Below are positions 1,611 through 64,000 of a DNA stretch of 64,000 nt, piece by piece (the first letter of the stretch is position 1; each line of letters starts with the position of its first letter). Both the position numbers and the translations under genes were made by a program. Under the pieces are notes generated by a model. The model was not told the DNA's origin, did no database searches, and saw only the letters and a list, made by a program, of their open reading frames with translations. This DNA is from Fimicolochytrium jonesii (lineage: Eukaryota), in the NCBI RefSeq assembly GCF_025526975.1, contig NW_026515700.1, forward strand, positions 62,001-126,000, written 5' to 3'.

Positions 1611-3942
1611 ATGGTGGAAACACGCGCTTCCAAGGCAAAGAAGGCTGAGGAGCAGCAGAAGGGTGCTGCTCCCGAGAAGTCGGGCGACGTGGTGCCGATG
1701 GAGACGGAGAAAAGCGAAGAAGAGAAGAAGGCTGAGAGTAATGCCCTGGTTCTAGCAGGTGAGGAAGTCGACCCCGAGCGAGTTGACGACATAGCCGAAG
1801 TGGCATACACTGCTGGGGTGATGCGGCTTTCGACTGGAACTAGCGAAGCTGAATGGGCTCGACTGCAGACATCAAGCAGAATCTGGCTTTGCTCGATCGT
1901 GCCGTAGCCACCCTTGAAAGTCGGTTCACAACCCGCGCATTGCGAGCCACCGCGTCAATCAGGAAGCGATTGAATCAGGACCTACTGGCTCAAGCTATTG
2001 AAACTCATGTTCCACAAGAAAAGAAGGGTGGGCTCCTTAAGTGGGTCGGGAAGGTACGTTTGGCCTACGATTTCAGCTACCCGTCGGGTTCAGCGGATTT
2101 ATTGTTCTCACTTTGCAGAGTTCCGATGCTATGGACGTGGATCAACCTGCGACTGATGGCAAAGAGAGCAAGACTTTCCTTCCCGAACATGAGATTTACC
2201 TGAACTACCTAGTTTTGCTCTGGTTGCATGACCAGCACCAAAACGAGAAGGTTAGATTCCCTTCTCCTTAATGGGACCGCTTACATGCCGGAGCTCACCG
2301 ATTCAACGTAGGGGATGCAATTGGTGAGCACCCTCGTAGAGCACGCTCAAGCGCTGAACCGTCGCACTCTGGACCAGCTTTCCGGACGTCTGTACTTCTA
2401 TCTGGCAAGGTTCCATGAGCTTTCGAACACAATGGCCAGCGCTCGCCCGTAAGTTGTACGAATAATAGTTGGGTGATGGGTCACTGCTGACGAACATCAT
2501 CCTGTAGGGTTCTCTTGGCTGTGCAGCGTACCGCCACCCTCAGGCATGACGACGACACGCAGGTACGTCGCATTAGACGCAGAGTCTCCTGACACGCACA
2601 TAACTGATGACGATGGTATCTAGGCGACCATTTTGAACTTGTTGCTTCGAAACTACTTGCATTTCAACCTATACGACCAAGCAGACAAGCTTGTCTCGAA
2701 GACGGTCTTCCCGGAGGGTGCTTCCAACAACCAAATCGCCCGCTACATGTACTACCTCGGTAGGGTCCCACCTTCTGACGCGCGAGAGTCACGTCGCAAC
2801 TCTTGACGTTCTTCCATTCAGGTCGCATTAAGGCAATTCAGCTGGACTATACCGCATCGCACCGGCATTTGCTGCAGGCAATCCGAAAGGGTCCCACGAG
2901 CCCGGCGAGCGCGGGTTTCCAGCAAGCTGTAAGTCTAACGTTGTGAGCACCATTATCCGACCGTCGCTTTCCTTACGCCCTCTACTCTAGGTCAATAAAC
3001 TTGCGATCATCGTGCAACTTTTGATGGGGGAGATCCCTGATCGGGCGATCTTCCGTCAGCCCATGTTACGGAAGTCGTTGGTTCCGTACTTGCAGATTAC
3101 GCAAGGTATGCATTGCTGATTGCGAGGCGGGTGTCTTCTCGAAAATGTTGCGGCCACTAAACAACGCCTTCTACCGTCAGCTGTGCGAATTGGAGACCTT
3201 GCCAAGTTCCAAGAAACCCTCGGACAGCACAATGCCACCTTCAGGACTGACAAGACCCTCACTTTGATCCTTCGGTATGTTGTAGACGTAATGTTTTTGC
3301 CTAGCCCACCGTTCTCACATTGCCCTTCAGTCTTCGCCATAACGTCATCAAAACCGGTGTCAGGATGATCAGCCTGTCCTACTCCCGCATTTCTTTGAGG
3401 GATATCTGCTTGAAGCTGCAGCTGGACAGTGAGGAGGATGCGGAATACATCGTCGCGAAGGTTTGTAAAAGTCTCTTTCCAGCAATGCGCTACTTTAGCT
3501 TACCATTGGGCGGTCTCAGGCAATAAGAGACGGCGTCATCGACGCTTCCATCAACCACGAAGAAGGCTACGTCAAATCTAAGGTATTACCAACCCAGCTT
3601 GCATACGCGGAGAGGAGCTCCCCAACACTGAAACTTGCAACCATCACAGGAAAACGTTGACATCTACTCAACGAACGAGCCGCAGCACGCCTTCAATCAA
3701 AGAATCACCTTCTGCTTGAACCTGCATAACGAGAGTGTCAAGGTGTGTCCCGCTGCCACTGTGTTTACACGTCGTCATCTAACCCCCTTCTGTGACATCA
3801 GGCACTACGCTTCCCACAAGATGCTCACCGCAAAGAGCTCGCTAACGCCACCGCATTGCGCGAGGAGGAGCGGAAGCTGGCGAAGGAAATCGTGGATGGG
3901 GAGATGGGGGATGATGATGATATGGGTGGAGACGAGTGGTAG
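1611..3942 (+). CDS. RPN3: 26S proteasome lid subunit Rpn3/PSMD3 (multi-exon)
   Basis: Spliced segments [118 protein letters not shown]. Stop TAG at 3940-3942. Confidence 0.95.
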
Positions 3943-4274
3943 AAGTGTGGTTTCATGGGAAAGACACCTAATTGGAACGCTTTTCATTGGCTGCTTTTGC
4001 AACGTCGTCGTCGCGCCTATATACCTTGTGGAAATGAATGCAAGATGAAAGGTTCCTTCATGTGAAATTTGAGCTTGTGTCTCCCAGCAGCCTCGAGCCT
4101 AGCAGATCCTTGTGCAATCTGGCATCAAGCGCGGCACATCACCCATGGCCAACCGGAGATTGCTCAATGTTTTGTCCACGGAAGTCTCTATCCCCAGACC
4201 CCATTCCAAAAAGGAGTATATTTTACACGTTCTCGCTGTCATGCAGTCAGGTATATGTACATTTGTTTCAAGTC

Positions 4275-10242: not shown

Positions 10243-12552
10243 TCAAAGTGTTGCCACAAGGCTGCTTGCGAAAGCGTTAGCCAGCGCCGCATGTGATGCA
10301 TCCGTATTGTGGTTTGCGAAAACAAGATCATCTGAATGACGGTTGCTGTTGGTCGCATTGTGAAAGTCGTGGGGCACACTGAACAGAAGCTCGTCCGGAT
10401 GGGCATGTGTCGAGTGCTGATCGTCGTGGTGCGTAGTCGATGGATAGACGAGATCGCCTGCGTGGCGGCTTGATATCAGACCCATCCCCATATCCAGCTC
10501 GTATGACATATTATGGTATTTGTTTGTTTGTGGGTCTCCAAACCCCAAGCCCATTTGCAGACCCGCGAAAGCAGCCGCATTAGCGGCAGATTGCTGCGTG
10601 GTGACCCCCGTGACTTCATGTGCCATGGAATGGTGGTCGTGCACAGCGAGGTGACCGTCGGCGCCTGTCATGGCAAACTGGTTGTTTACAAAGTTCTGGA
10701 GGAAGCCGTTGAATTGCTGGTCGGAATCGCTTTCGGAAGACTCGCATACGCCTTCGGGTCCCACGTTCATCAGCCGTGTGAGCTCGTCGACGGGCGATGC
10801 CGATGTTTGTGAACCGAGGAAGGAGGCTGTGGGGATTTCTGGTGTACATGGGGCACTTGGAGCTTCGGTGGCTGGCTCATCGACGAGCAGATCGCGCAAG
10901 ATGTTGTCTTTGGTGTCTTTGCCTTTAAATGGCCAAGAATTCCATCCGGGAATGTTGCCGAAGTCGAGGAATTGAGTGCAAAAGAGGTCGGCATTTGGTC
11001 CCCTATGAGAAAAAGTGCGACGTCAGTTTGTGTGAATGTCACCATCCGTTGGGGTAGTCCCTCGTAACTTACAGGTAGACAAGTACGTGGCTTTCATCCT
11101 GTACACACTTCTCCCGTCCAGTAGGTGTTGAGAAGCAAAGCTTGTTGAAAAAGAAGCAGTGCGGGTACTGCAGCACCTTCTGAAACCACGCGGTCCCAAA
11201 ATCCACCTTCAGCAGCACCATCGCCGACGAAATCTCTCCCAAGCGATACTTCTGCTCCGCCGCGCAGAACCAGCGACTTTGCTGACTGGTCCCGTCGGTG
11301 TCGTGCCCGACGGGCGGCGACAACCAGACATCGCCGGTCCATGGTTGGAGGAGGCCGTCGGCGTTTTCGTCAAAGAACTGCCGAGCGATCTTGTGCTCGT
11401 GGATCTTGTCATTGGCGAACTCGCAGGACGCGGGGTCCAGGTCGAAGACCACCTTGTTGATCACTTGCTTGGCTGCCGTTATAATGTCTTTTGGGGTGTA
11501 CAGTTCATTGTTGAGGTCCGAGAACGAGATTCCGGTTTCTGAGAGCAATCGAATGAGAATCGCTCATGGCGTTGATACGTAGATAAGACCCTCGATGACC
11601 GGATTTCCTGAGACGTACCATATTTGACAGTCATGGCAACAACGTGCTCCTCGGTAATAGTATGCCCCGATTCGCACACCCGTTTCCAGATGAACCGCCT
11701 CACATCGGCCGGGAACTTGTGCAAAGACCGAATGTGGGAGATGTTCACCGGCACGGGCAGGTTCGGATCCTCGACCAACGATTCGTAGACACTCCTGTGA
11801 ATTGGAAGCAGACGGAAGATGAGCACTATGACTCGCCGTCTGAGTGTTGGACAGGTGAAGGTGAACATACGCAGAGCACAGATAGGTGTTGGTGGTGCGA
11901 CGGCTGAATGAGAAGTTTTCTTTTGCGTATGTGTAAATGGTTTTGAAAACGGGCCCTGAACACAAACAATGCATCGAAATGAGTCCACGTATGCCGATGG
12001 AGACATAACTACGAGCCATGAACTCACCATAAAGCTTCTCCTCATCAATCTGTCTCAACGCAGCAGCTACGACAAAAAAGTCTACATTTAACAAACCGTA
12101 ACCGACGATGAGAAAGAAATGGGGCGACGACGAAGAGACTCACCAACTAAGAAGAACTTGCCAGTTCCCAGATGCTCCCTGATAACCGCCTCCAAGTTCT
12201 TCAACCGCTTCGCCGCAATCTCCGTCTCGCCCTCCGTAGCCTGTGCCGGCTTCCGATGACTGACGGGCTGACGTGGGCGGCGGGCCTTGCGCTGCAGGCT
12301 TGTTAGCGGCTGCGTGCCTGGAGCAGCGACGTTGACGTTGGGGGAAGCAGCGACGGTAGCGGTCGCGGTCTGACGAGGCCGCTTGTAGGGGTGATGAAAC
12401 TGGCGTCTGTGCTCGCCCTCGGCCGCGGGCGCCGCTGAACGAGACGGAGCGATGGGTGAAGGCTGCAGAGGCTGGAGTGGGAAGTCGTCCGTGGTGTAGG
12501 TGAAAGCATCCTCCGTGTCGAAACCGGCGAGTTGAACTGGCCCGGAAATCAT
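10243..12552 (-). CDS. ParB-like HTH domain fused to phage Dam-like DNA N6-adenine methyltransferase domain (6 exons)
   Basis: Spliced protein: LKNLEAVIREHL...AALRQIDEEKLYG...YTYAKENFSFSRRTTNTYLCSA...PVNISHIRSL (HTH), then ELYTPKDII...FDLDPASCEFAN...DGLLQPWTGDVWLSPPVG...SAMVLLKVDFGTAWFQ...HVLVYLGPNADLFCTQF (Dam fold). Confidence 0.85.
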
Positions 12553-29046: not shown

Positions 29047-31774
29047 ATGAAGGCCACGTTCATCCTCGCTGCCTCCATCGTTCCTTTCATCCTCAGCGCC
29101 GCCGCTGCTCCCGCTCCCCAGAATGCGGTAGGTGTCCTGTCTGGTTAGTTACTCTCAAGGACCTATCGCCTGCATGCTCATTCTTTGGTCTTCCAGGTTG
29201 CTGCCGGATTCAAGAAGTTCGAGCAGCCCAAGAAGAACGAGTTCAGCAACAATGAGTTCCAGAATAACAATGCCAACAACAACCAAAACCATCATGCTGA
29301 GAAGAAGAGTACGCCTTTATAGCATCTCATCGGATGTGTAGACACACTCACTTACTTTCCTTTCACTTCTCCTCAGACGCTAATAACGAGAACAACTTGA
29401 AAAAGGATCACATCCAAGCCAATCAGGTATGTCGAACGCTGTCCACACCCACACTTTTCACTGGCACATGCGTCTGACATCTACATCCTGCTCGATAGAA
29501 AAACCAGGCGGTTGCCAAAAAGAATCAAGAGAACAACTTCAAAAAGGATCACAAGGCAAGTATCTCACACTCACAGCGTGCTTCCGATCATAACACGCTA
29601 CTTACCGCTCTTACATCGCCTCCAAAACGACGGCAGAACCAAAACAACAAGAATCAGTTCAACAATGCCAATAAAGAGGACAGCAGTGAGTACCTCATAC
29701 ATTTTGTGTGAGCGTGTTGATGTGGCTTTCTCAACCATCTCGCTTCCTCAACGTTCCTTGCAGACAACTGGAACCAGAACAATGCCAAGAAGCAAGACAA
29801 CAAGCAATTCAACAAGAAGGAGGTTGAAGCTGCTGACGTCGATGCTGAGGAGGTTCAGGCCGCTGGGATTGGCTTCGGTGGCTTTGATGGTTTTGGGAAG
29901 AAGAAAGACGGTTTCGGCTTCGGCGGTGGCAAGGTATATTCGTCTCACCGATTTCCCGCCTAACGCATCAACGCTCAACCTGCCCCTCATCTCGTAGAAG
30001 AAGGACCAGGGTTACGGCTACGGAAAGAAGCACGGGAACGCCTACGGGAACACCTACTACAAGAAATATGATGCCGAGCCCGCTGAGGTCGAAGCGGCTG
30101 GAGTCGAGCCCGCTGAGGTCGAAGCGGCTGGAAAATACGGCGGCTACGGTGGTTATGGCGGCTACGGTGGTTACGGCGGCTACGGTGGTTTCGGCCCCTA
30201 CGGTGGTTACGGCGGCCACGGTGGTTACGGCGGTTTCGGCTACCTTGAAGCCGAGCCCGCTGAGGTCGAAGCGGCTGGTTACGGCGGCTACGGTGGGAAG
30301 AAGGGCGGCCCCTACGGTGGGCCCTACGGTGGAAAGAAGGGCGGCCCTTACGGTGGGCCCTACGGTGGGAAGAAGGGCGGCCCCTACGGTGGAAAGAAGG
30401 GTGGCCCCTACGGTGGAAAGAAGGGTGGCTACGGAGGATTCAAAAAGGTAGTGTCATCTTATCCACCTTGGCGCCGGCTCGTCCCAAAGCATTAACACTC
30501 GGCTGACTATGCACCTACTCTACAAGGACGCCGACGTCGAGGAAGTGGAAGCCGCTGGATTCAAGAAGGGCTTCCCCGAAAAGAAGAAGAATGAATACAA
30601 CAACAACCACTACGCCAACAATAACCAGAACCAAAACAACGAACATCACAATGAGAAGAAGAGTATGTCACGGCATTTCGTCACTGATCTGGGTTCGAAC
30701 TCTTTTAACGCTCTCAAACAGACGCCAACAACGAAAACAACCTCAAGAAGGATCACGTCGAAGCGAACCAGGTGAGATCCCTGTTCTTACTCGCTCTTCA
30801 GCGCACCTCTAACAGCGATTCGTTACCGCGTCTCCCTGTAGAAAAATCAAGCGTTGAAAAAGGTCAACCAGCAGAACAACTTCAAGAAGGATCACGAAAA
30901 CCAGAACAACAAGAACCGTAGGAGATCTCTGCTCGTGACTTCAACCGCGCGCTAGTCCGTGCGATTAACCCACTTCTCGATCTCTCCATCCCCTCTCGGC
31001 CCCATAGAGTTCAACAACGCTCAAAAGAAAGACCAGAGTGAGAACCACACATTCGCCAAGGCTGCATTTTGCATCTCCCTCGCTCACCACAACATCCCAT
31101 ACAGACAACTGGAACCAGAACAACGCGAAAAAGCAAGACAACAAGCAATTCAACAAGAAGGAGGTCGAAGCTGCTGACGTCGATGCTGAGGAGGTTGAAG
31201 CCGCCGGATTCAAGAAAGGAAAGAATGAGTGGAACAACCATGATTTCCAGAAGAACAATAACAACAATAACAACGAACATCACGCGGAGAAGAAGAGTAA
31301 GTCAGGCCGTTCTCCCGCTAGATGTGTAGACCGCTTAATCTTTCCATCTCCCGCTCTCAGACGCCCTGAACCAAAACAACGAGCAGAAGGATCACATCGT
31401 TCGTATCACAACATTCAGAGCAACCTCCCGCTCAGGACACACTACTCACCACTCTTGAACACAACGTTTCCAGCAAGCAAACCAGAAGAATCAGGAGTTG
31501 AAGAAGGTCAACCAAGAGAACAACTTCAAGAAAGATCACGGTCTGTTCCATTGCTTGCAGGCCAATCTCTTCCCTCAACATACTCACGTTGATATCTTCC
31601 CAACAGCGAACCAAAACAACAAGAATCAGTTCAACAATGCCAAGAAGAAGGATAGCAGTGAGTGCCTCTCCATCCTGACTTTCTCCTGACATAGCCTTCT
31701 CACCATCCCTTGCAGACAACCAAAACAACAACAATCAGAAGAAGCAAGATCAGAAGCAGTTCAACAAATACTGA
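29047..31774 (+). CDS. Secreted repetitive polyprotein: signal peptide, 3 N/K/Q-rich modules and Gly-Tyr-rich modules separated by acidic EVEAAG spacers (~16 small exons)
   Basis: Signal-like MKATFILAASIVPFILSAAAAP. The spliced frame stays open to TGA at 31772-31774. Repeats include NNWNQNNAKKQDNKQFNKK, NQENNFKKDH, GGY and GGKKGGPY. Confidence 0.85.
30070..30447 (+). repeat. Coding tandem repeats: GAGCCCGCTGAGGTCGAAGCGGCTGG x3, (GGY)n and (GGKKGGPY)n
   Basis: Near-identical nucleotide units visible directly in the 30070-30447 part of the exon. Confidence 0.9.
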
Positions 31775-60409: not shown

Positions 60410-62327
60410 TCACATAACGACACACCCTGTGCCATTCCCGGAAGCGCTCGACACGGACGCAACAGACTGCTGCGACCCCCGCCGACCCGTGCGTGGGCGG
60501 ACGGGGTTGGATGTGGCTGCCGCCGCAGTTGGTGCGGATGGGCTGCTGCTCATGAGCGCCTGTGGTATCCCGTTCGGAAACAGGGTAGCGAGCTCCTCGG
60601 TGGCGCGCTCGCGTCCGTTCTCGAGGGCCTTTTGTTTGACTTCTTTGGGGAAGTAGAGTTTTAGGAGGTTCATTCTTGCCACGTCTAACGGAACAGGAAA
60701 AGAGGGGCGCGGTTTTCCTAAATCAGTTCCTCTGGTCAAGAAAAAAGGGGGTATGAATATAAAAGGACTCACCGAGCTGGTTGGGCGTCGCGTCCTCGAT
60801 CGCGTTATGTGACCGACACACCGGGCAGTTCTTGACCTCCCGGACCTGCGCCTTGACGAGACACCGAACGCAAAAGACGTGGCCGCAGGTGAGACGGATG
60901 GGTTTCCAGGCCACGTCTTGGCAGATCGGGCAGGCGTAGTCGTCGGGTTGGGGGATCACTGTTACCAGTCGTTCCTGCGATTTCGAAACGTTGATCAGCA
61001 CACCAAATTCGGAGGGTCCATAGCTATAATTGTAGATATGCCATACCTGAATGGAAAAAATAAGGGCCCGTGCAATATTATCCATAAAGAAAGACTGGCC
61101 CTGCGAGAACCGACTAAACTCCTCGCTAGCGGTCAAATGCGTCCTCTTATCATGCTTCTTCAGAATCTTCCGCACGGCCATATGATTGATCTCCTCAAAC
61201 GTCCTCAACGCAAGAATCTCATGATTGATCGCCAAAAATGCTCGCAGCGCCTTCATGGACGCTTCGGCTTTCATCTGATGGCGCATGTTCTCCTGCACGA
61301 TCTTGGCGAAGGTTAACAGCTGTTGTTTGCTGGAGGGTAATGGCCGGTCTTTGACCCCGTTGACGAGCCAAATTTCGGACTGGAGGTAGGCGGAGAGGAG
61401 CGTGCGCCAGGCGTACATGTCTTTGCTGTAGGGCGAGGAGGCGCTGGCGAGGTAGCGGGAGAGGGTTTCGAGGTTTTCGTTGAAATTTGAGCGTTGGGTA
61501 TTTTCAAAGACGGTGATTTCGGTGACGGCGGAAGAGATGTCGGAAAAGAATTGTTGGTCGGCTTCGAGGAAGAGTTTGAGGACGTTGTTGCCAGCGTCTT
61601 CTGCTGATGACGAAGTTTGGGGGGTGGAGATGATGTCGTCGACGTCCAGAATGATGTCCTCCGTTGGGGATGGAATGCTGCTGCTGCTGCCGCCGTCGGT
61701 AGCCGGGGCAGAAACCGCCCCTGCGGCGGCGGTGGCGGCTTGCGAAAACAACGACTGACCCGCCTGCTTGCCCTTATCCTCCTTTGCAGTTTTTGAAAGC
61801 AGGCCCTTCAAGGAGATATGTGACTTTGATCGGATCTTGATCCGCAATGACCTCGATCCCCCAGCTTTCGATTTCCCCGACTCTTGAACCTCTATCTGAA
61901 CACCCTTCTTCTGATCCGATAAGGAAAGCACGGGGGCGTCGGGGTTGGCTTCTACACTCAGACCGGCATTATGAGCTTCGTCGTCCCCAGCAATGTTGAT
62001 GATTATGAACGGCTCGAGGTTTCCCGAGCTGCCTTCCAGAAAGTACTCGACTGTGCATAACCGCGGTCCCGAAGGAGTCGATATCACTGTCCCTTTTGAA
62101 TTGTCTCCCACCGAGATACCCTTTTCCTCCAATTCTGCCCATCGAAAAAATGGTGCATAGAGATCTCAAGTGAGTTCAAAAGGTTCTCGAGGCTCCCTGA
62201 GTTCCAGTCCTCCCACCATACCTTTAACGATACTCCGAATAGTCTTCTTCAACGCCTTGTACTGAAAGGCCGGCCACTCCGGCGGGAGGTCTCGGTAGGC
62301 CTCGCTGTATTGTTTAGCAAACTTCAT
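60410..62327 (-). CDS. SPX-RING E3 ubiquitin ligase (Pqr1/NLA-like) ending in CaaX motif CVVM
   Basis: MKFAK...QYKALKK (SPX helix 1), EINHMAVRKILKKHDKRT, RING CPICQDVAWKPIRLTCGHVFCVRCL...CPVCR, LKLYFPKEVKQK, terminal GCVVM*. Confidence 0.93.
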
Positions 62328-62714
62328 AACCGGGCGTACACTGGGGGCTACCCCGCAAGCCGTCCGGGAGTGTATGTGGAGTGTTCAAACGTGAGGGTTT
62401 TGGGTATGAGGTGCCTATTGCTGCCGGGCGTGGGAATATCCACCGTTTCCTGCGTCGAAACTTGGAGGGGAGAACTGACGGAATGCCGCAGTTTCTTTTG
62501 CCTTCTGTCGTATGGCGATTGCTGTCCGAGTTGCGGTTGTGCTCTGCGGCTCCGAGTTGCTTATATATGGATGCGAGACCTGGTTCCGTAGGTCGACTGT
62601 GTTGCCTGTTGGGAGCTGTGAATTTGAAAGACCGCCTGTGGTTGTGCTGAAGTGACTTTTCATCCCTGTGGAGCCTGCGGTTTGGCGTCGGTGATTATTT
62701 ACGCTGCGCTTGCT

Positions 62715-62993
62715 CACGCGACTCCCACGCACTCCGAACTGCCTCCGAACCCCCGCAAACTCGCTGTAACAACGGGCTCCAAGACTGTTTGCTTTCCACA
62801 CATGGGAAGTTTCCAAGGCGACCAACTTGTACTGCAGTGCATCCATCGAATCAATGAAATGTGGAGCTGTCGAAGCGACGGGGCGCACCGCCGCGGCCAA
62901 ATGTCTCGGACAGAGGGGTCCAATCTCGGCTTCTTTCCCGCATTGGGTTCCCTGACGCTTTCCGGTTTTGAACACGTACGCGCAGTTAGTCAT
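62715..62993 (-). pseudogene. Truncated giant-virus-like ORF: CxYxFKxGxxxGxxC...CxxH Zn finger followed by a possible Lon-protease N-terminal fragment
   Basis: MTNCAYVFKTGKRQGTQCGKEAEIGPLCPRH, then LQYKLVALETSHVWK and frameshifted KQTVLE...SLRG..GSSEC. Intronless. The left boundary is approximate. Confidence 0.5.
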
Positions 62994-63068
62994 AAGTTCT
63001 CAGATATCGTTCAGTGTATATTGAAAACACACAGGAAGGCTTTTTTTTTCGACAGCTGTCCATCCATC

Positions 63069-64000
63069 TCATCTGTAGGAAGATACCACCGCCTGTGTGG
63101 CCGCCTCGATCTCGGATCGATGTGCGGTGAAGAACTCCTGTAAGAACCGATATATCAAGTTCCCTTGTTCCATATTGGCCAGACCTGCGACATTCATTTT
63201 GCCACTGTTAAAGCACGATACGGATATGTCCTTGCAAGTGCATGCTTGTTTGTTCTGCACCGAGCATCTGCCCTGTTTCTCCGGATCGTCCCGGGTCGCC
63301 TCTTTGTAGTGATAGCGCAGGTTTACACCTGCGTTATCGTATGGCTCAAGGCGACTGTAAAAGCCGTTGTCGAGGAAGCAGCGATGCAATTTATCGCGAT
63401 TGATGCGGAACGGTGCTTGGAAGAACGTGTTGATCATGTGGACCTGAAAGGATGTCTCGGGAAGAGGCGCGGCGGGCCCCCACGTTGACGGCAGCGCACT
63501 AAAAGGATGTATTAGTACCCCTTATTCGACGAGGTACTTCCGTTGTCGTTCTCCATCAGCTATGAGCTTGCGTGTAGCCAGGACTGTTTTCGCCTTGACG
63601 AACGACTCTTTCCCAATGATAGTGTGGCCAAAGTATACATAGCCGAACTTCACGTCAAAATTTCGCCTGTTCGCGTCTCGATCAAAGCGCAATCGCAACA
63701 CCGCTCAAGGTATAAACCGACTTTTCGCCATCTTGCCATTTTTCGCTGACGAACAGGGGCGTTTTCTGCGCCCGACTAGAGTCTCCTGCGTCGCGTAGCT
63801 GATCGGCCAGGCCCGAGATCTGTCCCAAAGGCGTGAGGACGACGTATTCGCTGCCAATGTGAGCCACGTCTGGTGATGATCCGGCAGCCCAGCCGACGAT
63901 AGTTGGTGATGTACGTATGAGTTTGAGTTCGCGGGTGTTGTGCGTTTGGAGGCTGAAAAGACGAGGATGGTTGCTGAGATCGCACGCCGGCCGCCGCTAA
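63069..64000 (-). pseudogene. Disrupted Nucleocytoviricota-type TATA-binding-protein-like gene (runs off the window)
   Basis: MINTFFQAPFRINRDKLH...SRLEPYDNAGVNLRYHY...GRC...CTCKDISVSCFNSGKMNVAG...YRFL is a TBP repeat with a Cys-rich insert. The upstream frame has TAA at 63522-63524 and an apparent frameshift near 63700. No introns. Confidence 0.75.

Follow-up and report, generated by a model that had tools for sequence, protein, structure and literature searches.

Endogenous pieces of giant-virus DNA have already been published for zoosporic fungi, Fimicolochytrium jonesii included (PMC13533422; PMC5294986). The main text of PMC13533422 names F. jonesii among three isolates whose capsid gene is accompanied by no other viral gene on the contig, and it groups the fungal viruses with a lineage termed IM_02. 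In PMC13524828, IM_02 is renamed MY_02 Mycodnaviridae and IM_18 becomes MY_03, both belonging to the proposed order Mycodnavirales.

The locus described here lies near the end of the window, by which we mean the whole stretch of 64,000 nucleotides that was analysed. Positions 62,805-63,900 on the minus strand form a contiguous viral piece of about 1.1 kb among ordinary host genes. From a viral TBP gene it retains the 3' two-thirds; a spacer follows, and then the initial sixth of the gene after it. Both genes are truncated in mid-frame, and the TBP gene carries two more lesions. Our reading, to which we give a probability of about 0.7, is that this is one continuous fragment of a giant-virus genome, whose likely source is the fungus-infecting order Mycodnavirales; it sits upstream of a host SPX-RING gene and likely has no function. 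An earlier note, made from the letters of the window, had proposed a pseudogenised insertion of Nucleocytoviricota origin in an early-diverging fungus, and these three elements hold. The frameshift, the in-frame TAA and the truncation of both genes establish the pseudogene; the closest relatives, the tree position, the structural matches and the viral gene neighbourhood agree on the origin; and exons of an F. jonesii gene model are identical to the window.

The TBP remnant lies in two frames of the minus strand. Piece 1 (63,700-63,900) encodes the middle of an insert between the two TBP repeats; the first repeat and the start of the insert are missing. By tblastn, it is 30-40% identical to the five closest relatives, and a profile of 16 relatives matches it at 63,921-63,688 (positions 149-213 of 413, E 5.5e-09), the first few residues of this match not being real homology, so that the limit is placed at about 63,900. 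Piece 2 (63,069-63,698) encodes the end of the insert, with the in-frame TAA at 63,522-63,524, and the complete C-terminal repeat with its Cys-containing loop, down to the stop at 63,069. It is 56-61% identical to the closest relatives and matches the profile at 63,698-63,099 (positions 215-411 of 413, E 1.5e-86). Because the second open frame encodes the upstream part of the same protein, a frameshift must lie between the two pieces, near 63,699-63,702 on the minus strand (frame -2 to -3, by tblastn and hmmsearch), where the remnant is about five residues shorter than its relatives. Reading the TBP through in a single frame was tried and proved wrong for the first 98 residues, the upstream part being in another frame according to tblastn.

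The earlier note had thus correctly recognised a TBP repeat in the ORF at 63,069-63,437 (counted from its ATG; the frame is open from stop to stop from 63,521), as well as the TAA, the frameshift and a Cys insert in the C-terminal repeat, which is Cys-containing as in the viral relatives. It also described an alternative frame that is open to the end of the window. This frame is indeed open over 63,682-63,996, but a TAG follows at 63,997-63,999, and the homology ends at about 63,900. TBP needs both repeats for its saddle, and therefore the remnant, which has no first repeat in the window and is interrupted by a frameshift and a stop, could not work as a TBP. The relic as a whole cannot form a two-repeat TBP saddle or an ATPase.

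The TBP remnant is followed by a viral intergenic spacer of 75 bp (62,994-63,068, minus strand), the length originally reported for the gap between the two ORFs, with the next ATG at 62,993; the A10 run reported in it is in fact A9 (63,041-63,049). The second gene starts at this ATG. Its first 63 codons (62,805-62,993, minus strand) are the beginning of a truncated gene for a Lon-like AAA+ ATPase of about 410 residues, with 67-72% identity to four relatives (P0182, P0189, P0190, and P0191) and a match to profile positions 1-64 of 409. A second viral gene beside the TBP was therefore rightly predicted; it is viral over 62,993-62,805, however, and not down to 62,715. The identification came through the neighbour gene in a metagenomic locus, L003, where the gene next after the TBP begins with a sequence that matches the second ORF of the window (E 3e-11). 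A search with the first 175 residues of the L003 gene returned 37 proteins, mostly of about 410 residues with an AAA domain. Intact relatives match the AAA+ region of Lon (TIGR00763; E 4e-58, profile positions 255-585 of 795). The C-terminal Ser-Lys protease domain of Lon was not found in P0182 and P0189, which match only to positions 572-585 and have no Lon_C in Pfam. The family as a whole (P0167-P0203) consists of conserved viral Lon-like ATPases of about 410 residues with no protease region and with an N-terminal Cys/His segment, and this segment is all of the ATPase that the window retains. In L003 itself (1708-4104), the AAA gene carries an intein (Hint and LAGLIDADG) at the P-loop region, which the 37 shorter relatives lack. 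The frame of the stub in the window stays open for 129 codons past the junction, into the upstream region of the SPX-RING gene, to 62,415, which makes a chimeric ORF of 192 residues (62,415-62,993, minus strand).

Of the four distinct loci that carry this type of TBP, L003 is the one where the two genes were directly observed side by side. L001 and L002 lack the arrangement, and the sequence of L004 stops inside its TBP gene. Six pairs of TBP and AAA homologues have longest contigs of equal length (321,979; 62,136; 45,643; 15,010; 13,604; and 1,446 bp), which suggests that the members of each pair sit on shared contigs. The pairing is not general, because the regions around 81 AAA loci in other giant viruses contained no TBP, and 83 other TBP loci had no AAA gene next to them.

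Homology to the viral genes ends abruptly at both sides within the window, which sets the size of the relic at about 1.1 kb. In leave-one-out profiles, each of 27 relatives gives 19-54 bits over the 31 residues that precede the last matched motif, whereas the three frames of the last 103 bp of the window give -1.1 to -1.7 or are unreported. Since the upstream flank has no positive score where all these relatives do, the viral TBP gene is truncated at about 63,900, inside the window. On the downstream side, again leave-one-out, the next 31 residues of the ATPase reach 49-68 bits in every one of 37 relatives and nothing in the window. The downstream flank (62,328-62,804, minus strand) is likely the promoter and leader of the SPX-RING gene, judging by its sequence; its TATA-like box is at 62,569, and the relic ends about 240 bp upstream of this box.

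The earlier note had taken the locus for the left margin of a viral integration running on past the window. The end of TBP homology at about 63,900 does not support this, but the relic might still border a larger endogenous viral region beyond the window and have been rearranged, with an internal deletion or a small unrelated insertion at about 63,900 masking the continuity. On the one hand, the upstream breakpoint is 100 bp from the end of the window and the contig goes on, since the first exon of the deposited gene model lies outside and the longest contig given for that model measures 327,040 bp; besides, viral islands, both large and small, are known in zoosporic fungi (PMC13533422, PMC5294986). 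On the other hand, the upstream flank (63,901-64,000, minus strand) has no TBP homology in any frame and matches none of the 170 comparison loci; it carries the acceptor of the gene model at 63,953, a pyrimidine-rich acceptor-like site, and is probably of host origin. Moreover, the capsid gene reported from F. jonesii, perhaps on another contig, is described in PMC13533422 as the sole viral gene there. We therefore regard a larger region as unlikely, while giving it real weight. Within the window, the features of a giant endogenous viral element (a long gene-dense region, core genes, terminal repeats, and an integrase) were not found. Neither were terminal repeats or a target-site duplication at the ends of the relic, where the junction repeats look like chance, and so the route of entry is one that we infer. 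Broken viral DNA may have been captured recently at a host double-strand break during infection; alternatively, deletions may have eroded a longer insertion to the present piece. By either route, the relic would now be without function.

The other 62 kb of the window consist of host-type genes. We scanned 37 long ORFs of the window (of 94 with at least 150 residues), and all those with Pfam matches are of host type: ribosomal proteins, kinesin, MCM, kinase, TBC, SPX-RING, and others. For the 1,381 ORFs of the 170 comparison loci, one ankyrin gene was the sole match in the window beyond the 62-64 kb interval, and GC content is flat across the window. The immediate neighbour is the intron-containing host gene for an SPX-domain RING protein (60,723-62,327, minus strand; Pfam SPX E 1.2e-17, RING), with 3' exons further down. 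Two other features of the window were recorded. An exon at 11,069-11,563 (minus strand), part of an intron-containing host gene, encodes a DNA adenine methyltransferase domain of phage type, which narrowly passes the cut-off for Pfam Dam (E 1.6e-06); Dam-like genes occur in early-diverging fungi. At 29,400-31,600 (plus strand), low-complexity Gly/Tyr-rich and Asn/Lys-rich repeat ORFs share a common 'EVEAAG'-like repeat, have no Pfam match, and possibly encode secreted or wall proteins.

The locus itself is covered by a deposited gene model. The top homologue match of the TBP remnant, P0002, is the NCBI model EV422DRAFT_571353 of 235 residues, whose exons 2 and 3 (76 and 142 residues) are identical to the window and whose exon 1 lies past 64,000. 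The earlier description of the ORFs as intronless is true of the viral ancestor, whereas the deposited model predicts introns. One of them, delimited by comparing P0002 with the window (63,499-63,721, minus strand, 223 nt, GT...AG), spans both lesions and is itself viral coding sequence; a branch-like CTAAT is present near its acceptor. Gene finders pick introns that avoid stops. As this segment codes for viral protein and shows no more decay than its surroundings in the relic (its identity to relatives is 0.45, compared with 0.44 among relatives), we read the intron as a detour of the gene finder round the lesions and consider the 235-residue fungal model likely to be artefactual.

A different view of the same features is that the host is starting to co-opt the piece, using a host promoter and the predicted splicing to make a 235-residue one-repeat TBP, or else the 192-residue chimeric ORF. 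The GT...AG sites, the branch-like motif and the position of both lesions within the predicted intron speak for this view, as does the frame left open past the junction, which has a chance expectation of 2-7%. However, an intron that is as conserved as the exons with respect to the viral relatives, and that a gene finder would choose in any case for avoiding stops, argues against it; the product would have no first repeat, and the 192-residue ORF as a whole matched no protein at E <= 0.001 in the collection, in which only lengths of 105-336 were covered. We hold co-option to be highly improbable. A bolder version is that the chytrid is domesticating a fresh viral gene, with splicing round the lesions giving a one-repeat TBP plus part of the insert, a decoy that would poison the transcription start complex of the same viruses; we hold this to be more improbable again.

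The functionless viral piece that we favour is likely young, because the window retains all 34 columns that are invariant in 16 relatives, which also points to recent entry. Its end branch in the TBP tree is 0.12, and its identity to the relatives equals the identity among the relatives in five of five subregions, and likewise in the ATPase stub. With two lesions in about 340 codons, it would be a young pseudogene from an unsampled virus. The relic has a host-like composition (GC 52%, GC3 0.58-0.61), whereas the AT-rich named relatives have a GC content of 31-39%, with GC3 of 0.27-0.39 in the three loci compared. Recent capture explains the host-like GC only if the donor virus was GC-rich; as the comparison was made with DNA other than that of the closest relatives, composition does not separate a GC-rich donor from an older, ameliorated insert. 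The observed/expected ratio of CpG is 1.19 in the relic versus 1.00 +/- 0.09 in the window; with no CpG loss, there is no sign of methylation-driven decay. These data also bear on an assembly chimera, in which reads from a co-cultured or infecting virus would have been joined to a fungal contig. Both junctions are abrupt, as a chimera would have them, but a live virus is expected to have an intact TBP instead of a substitution-type stop and a multi-base frameshift, and the composition is continuous with that of the host. We give this explanation very little credence.

The homologue search passed 18 of 1,334 candidates, namely the gene model of the window locus and 17 proteins from metagenomes and unannotated assemblies; 15 of the 17 have 353-482 residues, and 8 have a precomputed Pfam TBP domain. 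In our own searches, Pfam TBP was above the cut-off in P0003, P0006, and L001; the viral pieces of the window alone gave no Pfam match. The predicted model of one intact relative, P0005 (pLDDT 84.5), can be superposed on human TBP over all 180 residues of the latter (Z 13.7, rmsd 2.5). When it was compared with viral structures by Foldseek, TBPs of Nucleocytoviricota came out on top (E 1.6e-18). On this model, P0005 would have the two-repeat saddle of the TBP family.

To place the remnant, we gathered 231 TBP-like sequences, in 201 of which both repeats could be located. The linker between the repeats has at most 60 residues in 146 of these (median 22), 61-139 in 6, and at least 140 in 49. A tree of the second repeat was built from all long-linker sequences, close partial ones and every third short-linker one (111 rows and 127 columns, three duplicates dropped); cellular TBPs were compared outside the tree, through sequence and fold searches against solved TBPs. 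The window TBP falls in a viral-type clade of 50 rows (100/97), apart from the 61 other TBP rows, with P0004, P0003, and P0005 nearest. The linker has 140-194 residues in all 39 members of this clade in which it was measurable. Nine rows with long linkers (>100) lie outside the clade, and one of the nine matched the insert profile at E <= 0.001; these rows seem to have other insertions. Long inter-repeat insertions unlike that of the window clade were seen in the viral-type TBPs L006:1032-2678, P0095, P0114, P0119, P0148, and P0152. Because these insertions do not match, the linker has expanded more than once. The earlier note had postulated a TBP with an unusually long region upstream of the C-terminal repeat; the length was right, whereas the location is between the repeats, with no N-terminal extension.

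Canonical fungal TBP or TRF, the best hits that the earlier note named as speaking against a viral source, were not seen among the top relatives. The window protein has the TBP fold and lies in a fungal genome, but a divergent fungal TBP or TRF paralogue is very nearly excluded, as the protein matches no solved TBP by sequence (best E 0.51, unrelated; the TBP family profile matches weakly, E 0.017), no top relative has a cellular name, and it is nested among viral-type TBPs beside a second viral gene.

The insert of the clade was modelled alone with a pLDDT of 91.7 and is mostly beta with one long helix. Two of its internal repeats are alike (hhalign probability 89%) and a third weakly so, giving at least two similar hairpin units. 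Weak matches to Pfam Bflower, the 4-fold beta flower (PF21784), occur in 7 of 20 members (best E 0.017). Compared with 48,161 solved chains, the insert model had no match with Z >= 5 (best Z 4.1, rmsd 3.4, 70 aligned); among viral models there was none at E <= 0.001, and all Atlas rows were sub-threshold. As far as a model can tell, these searches speak neither for novelty of the fold nor for one already described. We also considered that the insert might derive from an intein or intron, and dropped the idea because there is no Hint-domain match. The intact virus TBP is thus predicted to combine a normal saddle with a separate beta-rich domain of 140-194 residues between the repeats. Viral transcription factors or polymerase may dock on this domain. 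No description of the insert or of the window locus was found in the literature searched, in which some supplements of PMC13533422 are image-only or unreadable. Searching viral contigs with P0005 alone gave 12 pattern matches, none of which was confirmed, and a scan of prokaryote genomes ended with 0 of 42 confirmed.

The identity of the donor virus can be narrowed down further. The relic holds none of the GVOG7 core markers, and two scans of viral contigs found this TBP in one named locus, L001, in the genome GVMAG-M-3300015360-128, where the neighbourhood is gene-dense and AT-rich. This genome is filed under IM_02 in the supplement of PMC8575486. The window TBP shares a 32-row clade (100/84) with it, as the sole named row; L001 is not the closest relative of the window (34% identity to P0005). 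One named, more distant relative of the AAA gene is in a genome of IM_18, now MY_03 of the same order. The zoosporic-fungus host that characterises Mycodnaviridae is found here by way of the exon identity with EV422DRAFT_571353, and F. jonesii would be the true host of the donor. We consider it very probable that the donor belongs to the order Mycodnavirales and, at a clearly lower level of confidence, probable that it belongs to the family Mycodnaviridae (MY_02, formerly IM_02), an assignment based on one named genome and a tree of just 127 columns.

The locus itself is a small pseudogene, and the part of the finding that is most worth following is the insert of the viral TBP: it is a possible marker gene for the Mycodnavirales and offers a handle on transcription start in these viruses. 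Through the relic, a chytrid becomes the likely host for a cluster of environmental contigs (up to 322 kb), which indicates where to seek a live virus. It also adds a second, young giant-virus trace to a chytrid so far known for one stray capsid gene. Capsid-based screens miss relics of this sort, and the locus also warns that the 235-residue model deposited for it is likely artefactual.

Each of the known systems shares some features with the relic and its relatives. The endogenous Mycodnaviridae fossils of PMC13533422 resemble it in having giant-virus genes amid host genes and a host-like GC content; they were found by a screen for the capsid gene, and the main text of that paper does not mention TBP. 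Whereas those of Allomyces reach up to 350 kb with inverted terminal repeats (PMC13533422), the relic has 1.1 kb and no capsid, polymerase or integrase gene. The Lon protease (TIGR00763) has its AAA+ region in common with the relatives of about 410 residues, which end before the protease region and, unlike Lon, begin with a short Cys/His segment. Cellular TBP has the same saddle fold as the intact relative (Z 13.7), with about 14% identity in the structural alignment; in contrast to it, the viral clade has the inserted domain, and the window protein has no match to it at the sequence level. Closest in structure are the Nucleocytoviricota TBPs, mimivirus-like and from other giant viruses, which share the two repeats and the Cys-containing loop in the second; however, their linkers are short (median 22 residues in 146 of the 201 sequences) compared with 140-194 residues in the window clade. 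The relic is likely what a recent infection by a fungal giant-virus lineage left behind, and not the edge of a large integrated virus.
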